Source: an uncultured Methanoregulaceae archaeon (lineage in GTDB: Archaea > Halobacteriota > Methanomicrobia > Methanomicrobiales > Methanospirillaceae). Taken from it: DNA of 64,000 bases. Below are positions 6,681-53,650 of this stretch, piece after piece; within the stretch, counting starts at the first letter, position 1, and every line of letters begins with the position of its first letter. The notes below the pieces were generated by a model that was given only the letters and a program-made list of their open reading frames with translations, did not search any database and had not been told where the DNA came from. Location: NCBI GenBank assembly GCA_963737635.1, contig CAVTTL010000001.1, positions 1,600,001-1,664,000 of the forward strand, given 5' to 3'. A program made the translations under genes and the position numbers.

Positions 6681-6749
6681 TTTTTTCGCTACACCGGTAA
6701 TTCTTGAGACACGTCAATATGTTGTTTGAAAGGGGTATTTCTGATTCGC

Positions 6750-6992
6750 ATGGATAAAAATTCTGATTCTCGAACCGGTGGAAAACGCCGGGGCGATATA
6801 TCCCCCGGCTGCATTGTCGATATAATCCTCAAGGAAGACCAGCGTACAGGAAAAGTGACACGAGGTACCGTGAAGGATATCCTGACAAATTCCGCAGTAC
6901 ATCCCCACGGTATCAAGGTCCGGCTCCGGGACGGACGCGTAGGACGCGTTGCCCGCATCCTTGGCACTGAGTCATCAGGAGATGGGGAATAA
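6750..6992 (+). CDS. YwbE (DUF2196) family protein
   Basis: DIILKEDQRTGKVTRG.VKDILTNS..HPHGIKVRL..GRVGRV. Confidence 0.85.
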   Translation: MDKNSDSRTGGKRRGDISPGCIVDIILKEDQRTGKVTRGTVKDILTNSAVHPHGIKVRLRDGRVGRVARILGTESSGDGE

Positions 6993-7101
6993 GAACTGCC
7001 CATTGCAAAATATCGCGAAAACAGGGGCTATGCGAAGGATGAGAGCTTGCCGGTAGTTCCCGGCTTGAAAAGTATGAGGTAATGACGTTGCAGGAAAACG
7101 A

Positions 7102-10019
7102 ATGCGTACGCGATTAACGATTGCACTTATTGCACTCGTCGCGTTGGTGCTTGTCGCAGTACTGCCTCTCAAATTGTGGTGGGTAAATGCTTGATACGGT
7201 AACGTCGCGTTGGTGCTTGTCGCAGTACTGCCGGTATCGGCAACTTACTACGATATCAACAACACGATCAATCAGGGCGCAGTAGTGTATATTGGAGAAC
7301 AGCAACTGAATGTTACCAATGCCATGGGTCCGATATACACCCATGGTGATACCGCCATTGGCTGGTGGTCACCGGCCGCAGTCGTAGGCACTACGGCACC
7401 GACGGTCTCTATTCCGTTGAGTTCCATCACCAACAGTTCGTACTATATCTCCTCGGCTTCTTTTGGCGCCTATACTGGACCTTGGTACGGCGTTACTTCT
7501 ACTAGCGTAGGCGACACCGTTACTGGTGCAGTCTTCAACGTCCAGGATCCGAGCGTCAGTGTTGATGTATGGGATGAAACCACCGCAACCGCCGTAACCG
7601 GCGGCACTGCTATCCAGGGTGACAACCTTACCTTCCGTATCAACACGAACCTGCAGAGTGCACTCGACCCGACCAAGCGTAGTCAGGATGTTATTCCTGG
7701 CGCCGCCCAAATCGGTAACATAGATATCAAGGTACACAGTACCTACCGGAAACACGTATACTTCGCTGTTTAACACCACCTTAGCAAATGGAGCTTCAAA
7801 TACCGCGAGCATTACCTCGCAGAATGTGAGCTCAGCACTGTGGTTCTGGGGTACAGTTGGCGGAGCAGTTCCAGTTACCTCCGGCGCGGGCTTTAACATC
7901 AACTATGTATGGAATTCCGCCGCAACCGATTCAAGCGGTCAGCTGGCCTACCCAGCTGGTGTGTACACTGTTGTCGCCCAGTCCAGACTTAACGGGATGT
8001 ACGATAACTACCTGAACGGTGGCGCAACCTATACCGGTAAGACGGTAAGCCAGCCCGCAACAGTTACCCTATCGTCCAACACGGTCGCGATCTCGGCCAA
8101 CGTCAACTCCGTTGTCCGCAGCAAGGCGTTCTCAGTTACGATCACGGGCAAGCCCTATGGTATCTACCACCTGTGGATCAAGGGAACCAGCACCATGAAT
8201 GGTAACTACGACAACCAGCCGCCGTACATCACCGCGAACCAGGCAAACGTCGTATTTGACCCGATCAACACGACCAGCATTCCCGCGGCTAACAACCCGT
8301 ACAACCCGGTCGCCGACAACGGTGCCTACGTAACCCAGTACGGTGTCTCTATCTGGAACGACGTTGCCCACGGCAATGATATTGGATCATTCCAAAACCC
8401 AGCAACGGCCTCCGGTGTCGACGCAACTGCAATCGGCAACGGTACGTTTGAATACGCCAACGTGTCTCTCGACCAGACCGGTACGAGAACGGTTCAGTGG
8501 TCGACGACCAACTGGACAAAGGCTCAGCAGTACACCATCCGTGTCGAGCAGGACTTCGGAACCTCCGCGAACCACAACTACAAGTATGATGAGGTTAACG
8601 TGCAGGTCCAGAAGGGTGCAGTCACTATCGTTGCCGCCGGCTCACAGAGCTACTACCTCGGCGAAGAGGTACAGTTCTCCGGTACCAACACCGAATCCCA
8701 GACCACCTACCTGTTCATCGTTGGTCCCAACCTGGCCACCAATGGTGCCCAAATCGGGATGAACGCTCCAGCACAGTATCCAGTTACCAACAACAATCCA
8801 GGCACGTTCCAGCAGGTTAACGTCCTCGGTGACAACACCTGGTCATGGGAGTGGGGTACCAGTAACGTCGCTCTCGACGCAGGTACCTATACTGTCTATG
8901 CTGTCAGCGAACCCAACGATGCGAATAACTTAGCTAATGTGGCATACGGCACGGTCTCGATCATCCTTAAGGCACCGTTCGTCAGCGCAACCGCTTCCCC
9001 GTCCACTATCGCCCAGGGTGACGACTTATACATTACCGGCACAGCAGAAGGGAATCCATCGCAGGGCGTCCAGGTCTGGATCTTCGGTAAAAACTTTGCA
9101 TCGGTCAACCGGCAGTCCGTGGCATCAGATGGATCGTTCTCGTACGAAATAGAAGGAGCAGTCACTTCGGACCTGAGCTAACGGCCAGTACTTCGTCGTC
9201 GTCCAGCACCCCATGGAGAACGGTGTGTTCGATGTTCAGGCAGTTCCGCCACCGCAGAACGCAGACACCGGCCAGACCTCGGTTGTCTACACCGACAACC
9301 CCATCAGCCCGGGACAATTCCCGAGCGCAGACTCTGACGGTGATATGGAACTGCACAACTGTACCACAGACTTCGCCCTTTTCGGTCCTGGCGCCCTGCA
9401 GGGACCCAACGCTGCACAGGCACTGGTACAGGCGCTCAGTAGCGCGAATGTTGACGATACCTACACCACGCTCCCGTTCCGGGTAGAGACGCCGTACATC
9501 ACCATCAACCCGATCGGCGACCACCGGGTTGGCGACACGTTCACCATCACCGGCGAGACAAACCTTGCGGTAGATGACAACGTCCTCTTTACGATCTATT
9601 CATCGTCATTCGTGCCGACCGACACGAACAAGACCGAGGATGACGAATTCAGCGGTGCATCCGGCACGGTGGCAGTTACCCCGGGTTCCCATAGACTGAA
9701 CCAGGTCTCGTTCGATGTCGATGCATCCACGTTCGAGCCGGACGAGTATCTCGTAACCGCCAAAGCAGTGGATGACCCCACCACAAACGGGACGGCACTG
9801 TTCAATATTCTCGAAGCAAACGCCACGGCTGCACCGATAACGTCCCCGGTACCATCTGTCCCGGCCGGCACCGATCCGGTCGCTGCACTGCCTGGTACGA
9901 TGGTGCCAGTCACCACGGCCATCCCTTCCCCGACACAGCCGGGGTTTGGCGGGGTTGTGGCGGTTGGTGCGATAGGGATCTGCGGTATGGTAGGTGTGGA
10001 CCGGAAGAAAAGGATATAA
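7102..10019 (+). pseudogene. Large S-layer/surface glycoprotein (MEMAR_RS02690/DUF3821-like, PGF-CTERM); interrupted by an insertion with an in-frame TGA and two frameshifts
   Basis: Signal peptide from ATG 7102; NTINQGAVVYIGEQQLN; many N-x-S/T sequons; C-terminal TQPGF + TM + basic tail; split over ORFs at 7210, 7826 and 9213. Confidence 0.75.
7137..7232 (+). repeat. Perfect 30-bp direct repeat flanking a 36-bp unique insert
   Basis: cgtcgcgttggtgcttgtcgcagtactgcc at 7137-7166 and 7203-7232. Confidence 0.95.
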
Positions 10020-10159
10020 ATTTTCGGGAGTTAAGGTTCTCACTTTATGATGTTCAAGAGCCGGTTGAAGTTCAGACGGATTCCTTGCTACATACGTTCA
10101 ACAAGCCACCTCTATGACCGATAGACAGAGGTGCGTTATAAAAAAAAGGTCAGAAAAAA

Positions 10160-10373
10160 TCAGAAATCGTCTTCTTTCAGGTCTGCGACCACAATACAGT
10201 GATGGATCACCCCAACGGTGAGATCATCATGCAGCGGGGACCGCAAGATGCTCCGGGTTTCCTTCTTTTTTCATGATCACATGACTGCCGGTTTTGGTCT
10301 TTCTCAAGACGATCCAGCCCTTACGGCGGAGAACCTTGATCATCTCCAGCCCGGAGATTACGGGATGTTTCAT
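10160..10373 (-). CDS. hicA: HicA family toxin; frameshift near 10235
   Basis: MKHPVISGLEMIKVLRRKGW..GSHVIMKK..LAVP/LHDDL; overlaps the hicB stop as ATGA. Confidence 0.75.
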
Positions 10374-10582
10374 GCGACAACCTGAATCTCCTTAACGTGC
10401 TGGAGGGATTTTGCGGCCTCCTGGGTTCTGACTTCAAGGTATTCGGGGATCAGCTCTTTCATACTCTGGAGAGCCTCCTCCTCCGTGTTCCCCTGAGCCA
10501 TGCAGCCCGGCATCCCCGGGACAAAGACGGAGAACCTCCCATCGTCTTCCCGGACTACCTGCACCGTGATTTTCATTACCAT
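10370..10582 (-). CDS. hicB: HicB family antitoxin
   Basis: EDDGRFSVFVPGMPGCMAQGNTEEEAL. Confidence 0.85.
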   Translation of the reverse strand: MVMKITVQVVREDDGRFSVFVPGMPGCMAQGNTEEEALQSMKELIPEYLEVRTQEAAKSLQHVKEIQVVA

Positions 10583-10683: not shown

Positions 10684-10765
10684 GCCGGGATTTAGCGGGG
10701 TTGTGGCGGTTGGTGCGATAGGGATCTGCAGTATGGTAGGTGTGGACCGGAAGAGGGGGCAGTAA
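10684..10765 (+). repeat. Duplicated 3' end (PGF-CTERM) of the S-layer gene
   Basis: 10684-10754 is nearly identical to 9938-10008. Confidence 0.9.
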
Positions 10766-10963
10766 TTTTTCAGACTTGGGGGTCTCGGCAGTTATACGAA
10801 CCGGATGATGTCCCGGAACCAGAAAGCCCAACCGGGTTTTCGAATGTTATTTTGCGTTTACCGTTGATCACCCATTCTTGTTGATTATATTAAATCAACC
10901 GCCGCCGCAAACGGATCCCTATGTGGCAAAATAATTTATATTACTATAGCCTTTTTAAAAAAC

Positions 10964-11284
10964 ATGTATCAGATATCCCCACGTGATTTTTCTGAATTAA
11001 ATAAGGCCTTTAGCAACGAGATTGAGAAGGTTTTATTAAAATTTGTTCACGATGGAAAAATGAAAGTAATTCCCGATGAAAAACCATCAAAATCCCTTGC
11101 CGGCGGTGGGAAACAGAAAAGAGGAAGGCCGCGCACGATCAAAACTGACGAAAAAATCGAACAGAAAGAGAAGAGGCCCCGGGGCAGACCACGCAAAATC
11201 AAAACTAATGAGATAAAACCTGCCGATGGTCCCAAACGCAAGCGCGGAAGGCCAAAAAAAGTAGTAACGCCGGAAACTGAATAA
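10964..11284 (+). CDS. Small basic protein with three AT-hook (RGRP) motifs
   Basis: KRGRPR, RPRGRPRK, KRGRPKK. Confidence 0.75.
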   Translation: MYQISPRDFSELNKAFSNEIEKVLLKFVHDGKMKVIPDEKPSKSLAGGGKQKRGRPRTIKTDEKIEQKEKRPRGRPRKIKTNEIKPADGPKRKRGRPKKVVTPETE

Positions 11285-52942: not shown

Positions 52943-53650
52943 ATGAAATTACCAAACATAAGTTTCCGATCAGCCGCATTCATTGTAATCGGCGTAATGA
53001 TGATCGGCCTCCTCTTGAGCCCGGTGAGCGCGGCTTCCGGGTTCTTCTCGTTCGGCAACACGACCAGCAATCCTTCCGTTGACCATCACCACGCGTTCAA
53101 CAGCACGCAGATGACGGCACAGGTCCAGGGATTCCTTACGAACCTTTCAGCGCAGGGAGTGGATGTAAGCACGGCACAGGCTGACCTCTCCTCAGGCAAT
53201 ATGACCGCCGTTTTCCAGTGGCTTATGGCCTATCACCAGGCCAACCCGGGCTCCGCGATGATTGGCGCCCACCAGCATGCGTTCAACAGTACCATGATGA
53301 CCACCCGGCTTCAGTCGGCAGTCACAAAACTTGGCCAGAATGGCGTTGACGTGAGCCAGGTACAGGCAGATCTTTCATCAGGGAACCTGACCGCAACAAT
53401 GCAGTGGATGGCAGCCTACCACAAGGCACATCCGTCCCAGAAAGGCAACACGACTGCCATGCAGGGCTTCAACAGCACCCAAAGGAACCAGAATGGTGGG
53501 ATGCGCCATGCGGGTTTCGGTAACACAACTGCTTGGCATGGTTTCAACGGTACCCAAAGGAACCAGAATGGTAGGATACACCAGGCAGGTTCCGGTAACC
53601 AGTCTGCATGGAACAAATGGTTCGTGGCCACCCCTACGCAGGGTTCCTGA
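52943..53650 (+). CDS. Secreted protein with internal repeats
   Basis: Signal peptide ending PVSA; two HAFNST..GVDVS..QADLSSGN..W.AYH repeats and two GFN.TQRNQNG repeats. Confidence 0.75.
   Translation: MKLPNISFRSAAFIVIGVMMIGLLLSPVSAASGFFSFGNTTSNPSVDHHHAFNSTQMTAQVQGFLTNLSAQGVDVSTAQADLSSGNMTAVFQWLMAYHQANPGSAMIGAHQHAFNSTMMTTRLQSAVTKLGQNGVDVSQVQADLSSGNLTATMQWMAAYHKAHPSQKGNTTAMQGFNSTQRNQNGGMRHAGFGNTTAWHGFNGTQRNQNGRIHQAGSGNQSAWNKWFVATPTQGS

Follow-up and report, generated by a model that had tools for sequence, protein, structure and literature searches.

The DNA analysed here is a stretch of 64,000 nucleotides from an uncultured Methanoregulaceae archaeon (GenBank assembly GCA_963737635.1, contig CAVTTL010000001.1, positions 1,600,001 to 1,664,000 of the forward strand), referred to as the window, and the subject is a 66-bp insertion in one of its genes, which encodes a surface-layer (S-layer) glycoprotein. 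Positions are those of the window, and those prefixed C1 are positions on the contig. The gene occupies 7102-10019 on the plus strand, belongs to the MEMAR_RS02690 family (NF041431), and is broken in the assembly by the 66-bp insertion and by two single extra bases on the same strand, at 7742 (first frame change) and 9175 (second frame change). Three open pieces match the NCBIfam model NF041431 (7210-7773, 80.6 bits; 7826-9181, 483 bits; 9213-10019, 237.8 bits) and together cover model positions 14-809 of 819; their simple sum is 801 against a whole-protein cut-off of 600, the pieces having been scored separately and not as one protein. The N-terminal part of the gene product is DUF3821. Removal of the 66 bp and of the bases at 7742 and 9175 gives a single frame of 950 amino acids (aa), at the end of which a PGF-CTERM-like tail is recognizable by eye, no model match being listed for the tail. 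Named relatives of the gene come from Methanoregula or Methanoregulaceae metagenome-assembled genomes. The genome contains three full-length S-layer paralogs, at C1:1243483, C1:1607102 (the interrupted one) and C1:1790380, and all three are split in the assembly (the other two at C1:1243483-1246321 and C1:1790380-1793194). The contigs of all four public sequencing runs examined lack the extra bases at 7742 and 9175, and these frame breaks are therefore probably assembly indels and not extra lesions, which leaves the 66-bp insertion as the sole real lesion of the gene. Single-base indel errors of this kind are probably numerous throughout the genome, and apparent pseudogenes elsewhere in the assembly are to be distrusted.

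The insertion lies in the signal-peptide coding sequence. The 30-mer CGTCGCGTTGGTGCTTGTCGCAGTACTGCC is present on the plus strand at 7137-7166 and again, with 100% identity and a start-to-start spacing of 66, at 7203-7232, and the two copies enclose a 36-nt spacer-like insert (7167-7202) that is unique in the genome and has a guanine-plus-cytosine (GC) content of 39%. The lengths of 30 and 36 are unambiguous because the bases preceding the two copies differ (t and a), as do the bases following them (t and g). Read from the ATG at 7102, the 66 bp add 22 codons in frame, among them a TGA at 7192-7194 that is supplied by the insert and stops the reading frame after 30 codons; with the 66 bp removed, the N-terminus is that of an ordinary signal peptide. 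The exact duplication around a unique insert, the in-frame TGA and the signal peptide restored by removal had all been described in the original prediction, made from the letters of the window, and each of them was recovered here. [quoted passage not shown] A more tolerant scan (at least 27 of 30 matches, spacing 60-73) returned this site and one 60-bp tandem duplication, and nothing else. The tandem duplication is near-exact and lies outside the window (C1:653429-653548); within the window, a repeat with a 75-nt period and 80% identity is found at 53461-53610 (C1:1653461). Tandem duplication was considered as the origin of the 66 bp and rejected: the repetition covers only 30 of the 66 positions, the full-period identity is 0.56, and between the insert and the stretch one period downstream there is no relation (about 7 of 36 matches), so the structure is not a tandem duplication.

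Homologous loci were compared across the junction. Each of the 12 homologous loci has the target 30-mer as a single copy; both paralogs carry it once, with 29 of 30 matches and no insert, and the 66 alignment columns are missing in 12 of 12 homologous 5' ends (the two paralogs and ten loci of other genomes). Two further loci (L015 and L016) that were not part of the 12-sequence alignment also align straight across the junction. Judged from these aligned sequences, the 66 bp are an insertion. Two small differences upstream of the insertion were also seen in the alignment: at 7088-7113 the interrupted paralog has GCAGG where 12 of 12 homologs have a GGAGG ribosome-binding motif, and its product begins with MRT in place of the MTK of the homologs.

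Words of the 6900-7500 region are contained in 13 public runs from six studies, with no RNA data set listed among them. Four of these runs (X1, X3, X4 and X6, one per study) were examined by contig, using Logan contigs and not reads; one public run is possibly the source of the assembly, and the runs are not all independent. In X6, one contig joins 7136 directly to 7203, skipping the 66 bases, with 27 letters on the left side of the joint, and this contig is the same as the window up to 8003 except for the indel at 7742. The depth of X6 in the bin 7135-7261 is 4.6, which by simple arithmetic is fully explained by the joining contig and its left neighbour. The 30-mer of the X6 contig and the base following it differ from both paralogs, so the uninterrupted allele belongs to the interrupted locus, and X6 carries the uninterrupted allele of the S-layer locus at C1:1607102 itself. 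The absence of the insert, which the original prediction had proposed to look for in close relatives, thus extends from the homologs to one natural population. Among the contigs listed for X1, X3 and X4 there is no 7136-7203 joint. Right-hand contigs start at 7203 in X3 and X4, as expected because a k=31 graph branches at a 30-mer that is used twice, and at 7234 in X1, which has a variant at 7233. In these three runs the depth in the bin 7135-7261 exceeds that of the contigs listed. Of the 571 31-mers of 6900-7500, 66 touch the insert, and a sample lacking it could therefore contain about 0.88 of the sampled ones at most; the share found is 0.97 in X1, 0.92 in X2 and X3, 0.90 (borderline) in X4 and 0.73 in X6. 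The presence of the insertion allele in the short-read data of more than one study is supported indirectly. The S-layer locus is polymorphic in nature, and the insertion event is recent, since the two 30-nt copies are identical and the insert-free allele still circulates. Over 6951-7139 the X6 contig shows no difference from the window, so neither the GCAGG nor the MRT change is linked to the allele with the insert; a T>C difference at 6738 is seen in all four runs examined.

A k-mer scan found two CRISPR arrays in the genome, which is a Methanoregula-like metagenome-assembled genome. Array 1 (C1:678283-681463) is of type I-B, lies about 0.93 Mb from the S-layer site, and consists of 48 exact copies of a 30-nt repeat and one degenerate copy at its low-coordinate end. 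Its 47 spacers are mostly 35-37 nt long (36 of 47), with 22 of 36 nt, seven of 35 nt and seven of 37 nt, and the modal repeat-spacer unit of 66 nt is the size of the insertion. The high-coordinate end of the array is directly adjoined by cas2, cas1b and cas4, in which no internal stops are reported; the cas1 product scores 415.5 bits on TIGR03641 (type I-B Cas1b) against a cut-off of 304.1, and cas8b1, cas7/Cst2, cas5b and cas3 follow farther along. The array was oriented by its degenerate terminal repeat, by where the cas genes and the leader lie, and by a 3' ATTGAAA-type motif. No Rfam CRISPR-DR family matches Array 1. The identical 30-nt repeat was found in 29 copies, with a similar leader end, on an independent metagenome contig (L030, 9260-11167), where the spacers are 34-42 nt long, centred on 35-38 nt, with a mode of 36; none of them is shared with Array 1. 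Array 2 (C1:1686847-1688518) has a 37-nt repeat, units of 70-75 nt and its own cas4-cas2-cas1-cas3 genes, and with a repeat of that length only Array 1 fits the 30/36 geometry. A third Cas1 of 310 aa (172 bits on PF01867) is encoded at C1:1447755-1448687 (L022:6755-7687) with no cas2 or array nearby, its neighbours being two AMP-binding ligase genes and genes for two large proteins without a family match. The original prediction had proposed to look in the genome for cas1 and cas2 and for arrays with 30-bp repeats and spacers of about 36 bp, and Array 1 with its adaptation genes answers to this description. Array 1 also has one spacer unit that occurs twice (C1:680794 and C1:680860), a leader within which some 28 nt are duplicated, and unusually short newest spacers in the region C1:681190-681463, features that could reflect imprecise recent adaptation or mis-assembly of the array.

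The source of the 36-nt insert was sought within and beyond the genome. There is no second copy in the genome within 8 mismatches, its k-mers recur there about as often as chance predicts (a single 13-mer where 1.8 were expected, eight 12-mers where 7.3 were), and no match longer than 10 nt is found within 5 kb of the site; the genome was not its template. Its GC content is low (0.39) and falls within the range of the Array 1 spacers (0.31-0.73, mean 0.55). A phage collection gave eight chance matches (E values of at least 1) and a plasmid collection gave none. The exact 36-mer was found 0 times in each of the viral, genome and metagenome contig collections, scans which would miss a diverged protospacer, and none of 227 other family genomes contains it even with up to 3 mismatches allowed. 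It also does not match the spacers of the L030 array. The genome contains no target for the canonical Array 1 spacers, and a protospacer adjacent motif (PAM) is therefore not derivable from them.

The length of the duplication is the Array 1 repeat length and that of the insert is the modal Array 1 spacer length. A spacer framed by two copies of a repeat-length target is exactly the product expected when staggered Cas1-Cas2 integration is followed by gap repair. The geometry, the matching array with its cas genes, the lack of the insert elsewhere and its foreignness to the genome are observed; that the type I-B adaptation module made the insertion off target is probable. We infer that Cas1b-Cas2, possibly with Cas4, of the Array 1 locus would have integrated one processed 36-nt prespacer at the 5' end of the S-layer gene. 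The two 3'-OH ends of the prespacer would have attacked opposite strands 30 bp apart, the spacing that the complex would normally measure across the 30-nt repeat, and gap repair would then have duplicated the 30-bp target to give a target-spacer-target product that lengthens the signal-peptide coding sequence by 22 codons, one of them a TGA. The resemblance to off-target spacer integration that the original prediction had pointed out is thus favoured by the array, the allele comparison and the lack of transposon features.

Several observations weigh against this reading. The target matches the Array 1 repeat at 7 and 8 of 30 positions in the two orientations, where the genome mean is 7.4, and together with 10 nt of leader it matches at 11 and 10 of 40 positions, where the mean is 9.9; about 40-64% of genome positions resemble the repeat or leader as well as the target does (47-64% for the 30-nt repeat alone). 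A resemblance of the target to the repeat or to the leader-repeat junction is accordingly rejected as being at random level, such resemblance being a typical and not a strictly defining feature of integration sites. Off-target sites of the Pyrococcus furiosus enzymes have positional features in common with repeats (G1, T3, A6, T14, A18, A20, T24 and A29; PMC6698737), and by our own count the Array 1 repeat meets seven of these eight features and the ectopic target one or two. Accurate 30-bp duplication in the type I-B system of Haloarcula hispanica requires mid-repeat motifs (PMC4872114). No protospacer or PAM for the insert was found in any collection searched, so its identity as a captured spacer lacks independent support, and the comparison with viral, plasmid and self sequences and the look for a PAM that the original prediction had proposed gave no match; the canonical spacers of Array 1 likewise have no genome match, and the blank for the insert is therefore uninformative rather than negative. 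The four newest, leader-proximal spacers of Array 1 are atypically short (34, 24, 27 and 30 nt), unlike the 36-nt insert. Among the contigs listed for X1, X3 and X4, none spans 7140-7202. The site is also a single event. On the other side, the border bases of the target (C...C, or G...G on the other strand) agree with the rule of 'G and/or C 30 bp apart' given in PMC6698737, which is weak evidence.

Of the other explanations, an insertion made independently of CRISPR survives best, although it is unlikely. In this account a staggered double-strand break or an accident of replication or repair would have doubled a 30-bp stretch and taken up 36 bp of filler DNA, or another integrase such as the stand-alone Cas1 would have acted, and the match to Array 1 would be coincidental. 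It would sit well with a target that has no similarity to repeat or leader, with the lack of a protospacer, and with the existence of a Cas1 gene at C1:1447755-1448687 that has neither cas2 nor an array nearby; a perfect 10-bp palindrome, GCAGTACTGC, at 7156-7165 near the right border of the target might favour breakage (such a palindrome has about a 2% chance of occurring in any 30-mer and was noted post hoc). However, both lengths, 30 and the modal 36, would have to equal the Array 1 values by chance, and no other member of the set of 14 local repeats in the genome has this geometry. Filler DNA is usually copied from nearby, whereas the insert shares only chance-level k-mers with the genome, and none longer than 10 nt within 5 kb. 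Casposon-type Cas1 enzymes produce target duplications of about 14-15 bp, against the 30 bp seen here.

That the 66 bp are an assembly artefact, present in no real molecule, is very improbable. The assembly does contain single-base indel errors, at 7742 and 9175 when compared with all four runs, all three S-layer paralogs are split in it, and the insert is not spanned by a listed contig; but errors of the indel type do not make an exact 30-nt duplication around 36 unrelated bases. Three runs also hold more of the sampled 31-mers than an insert-free sample could (X1 0.97, X2 and X3 0.92, against about 0.88), and X1, X3 and X4 have surplus depth in the bin 7135-7261, while in X6 two contigs of the insert-free form account for all of the depth there. 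Least probable of all is an insertion sequence (IS) or miniature inverted-repeat transposable element that was inserted and then excised to leave a footprint, as a direct repeat around foreign sequence inside a gene might suggest and as the original prediction had allowed for, since the 36-nt insert has no terminal inverted repeats, a 30-nt duplication is far above the few to about 15 bp that IS elements usually duplicate, and no other copy of the insert occurs in the genome or in the 227 family genomes. Even taken together, an artefact and a transposon footprint would account for very little of the probability.

If off-target integration by the type I-B module is accepted, the consequences for the gene can be outlined. 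With a TGA within the signal peptide the interrupted paralog is most likely null, and translation restarting from the TTG at 7210 would yield a product that lacks the charged beginning of a signal peptide. Two other S-layer paralogs remain, so the loss may be tolerated. The original prediction had further suggested that the insertion seeded a nascent array, and this part is not supported: the pseudo-repeat matches the real repeat at a random level (7-8 of 30 positions), there is one spacer only, and as the two repeats are unrelated, processing by Cas6 is unlikely. A functional nascent array is accordingly unlikely on the evidence of the repeats themselves. The role of virus receptor that it had suggested for the glycoprotein is pure speculation. 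A bolder version of the argument, which we regard as quite improbable, is that the I-B Cas1-Cas2-Cas4 complex makes ruler-only, sequence-independent integrations in host genes, and that this one persists in several soil populations since loss of the S-layer paralog is advantageous, for example by removal of a virus attachment site; if that were true, the protection gained through CRISPR adaptation would come from a mutation of the host and not from a guide RNA.

The region downstream of the gene contains further repeats and genes. An 88-nt direct repeat (89% identical) is located at 9938-10025 and 10684-10771 and is a copy of the 3' end of the S-layer gene, including the PGF-CTERM-like tail and the stop. 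Between the two copies lies a hicA/hicB toxin-antitoxin pair on the minus strand (10227-10582), and contig loose ends at 10008 in X1 and X3 run on like the second copy, so variants without the hicAB segment seem to exist. Downstream of this segment, an open reading frame of 106 aa at 10964-11284 encodes a lysine- and arginine-rich protein with AT-hook motifs.

Off-target integration has so far been shown mainly in Escherichia coli over-producing Cas1-Cas2 and in vitro; for natural genomes there was, according to 10.1101/148544, 'circumstantial evidence' only, from two other species. The literature searched, whose coverage left out most subscription journals, yielded no report of such an integration occurring naturally in a methanogen or within an S-layer gene, and nothing relevant to off-target events outside arrays was found in PMC10284694 or 10.1101/2022.05.19.492656. 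The S-layer site would be a rare and clean natural case of a known kind of event, in an uncultured methanogen, with matched lengths, an insert-free allele in another population and a gene knocked out. It would document a real genomic cost of CRISPR adaptation, in which an immune system damages its own genome, and it offers a search recipe (a duplication of the resident repeat length around an insert of the resident spacer length) that could be used to gauge the frequency of such events across genomes.

The closest precedent is the off-target spacer integration, with 'neo-CRISPR' loci, in the type I-E system of E. coli (Nivala, Shipman & Church, Nat Microbiol 2018, cited here through 10.1101/148544, PMC6698737, PMC7054753 and PMC9456107), where off-target genomic integrations have been detected by deep sequencing (PMC7054753). 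Both have a spacer-sized insert, a duplication of repeat length, a non-CRISPR genomic site and a resident Cas1-Cas2, whose involvement at the S-layer site is presumptive. The site described here differs in being natural and not the product of Cas1-Cas2 over-production, in belonging to an archaeal type I-B system with Cas4, in its 30/36 geometry, in disrupting a coding gene, and in having a target without leader-like or repeat-like features. Ectopic acquisition in the CRISPR1 and CRISPR3 systems of Streptococcus thermophilus (PMC7999890) likewise takes place away from the leader-proximal repeat, although there the sites are genuine repeats inside an array, whereas the S-layer site lies in unrelated coding sequence, 0.93 Mb away from the array. 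With H. hispanica (PMC4872114) the site shares type I-B and a 30-bp duplication, but the Array 1 repeat and the ectopic target both lack the two motifs described there, and the 30-bp spacing is kept regardless. The purified archaeal Cas1-Cas2 of P. furiosus, with 30-bp repeats, carries out full-site integration in vitro at non-CRISPR sites with a spacing of 30-31 bp (PMC6698737). The likeness to this system is in the archaeal host, the 30-bp repeats, spacers of about 37 bp in P. furiosus, the intrinsic 30-31 bp spacing of paired attacks and the G/C border bases, and the difference is that the off-target sites there share several repeat bases, whereas the ectopic target here has one or two of the eight. 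Compared with these systems, and provided that the insertion was made by the type I-B adaptation module, the S-layer site suggests that a type I-B integrase kept its 30-bp spacing on a target without repeat motifs.

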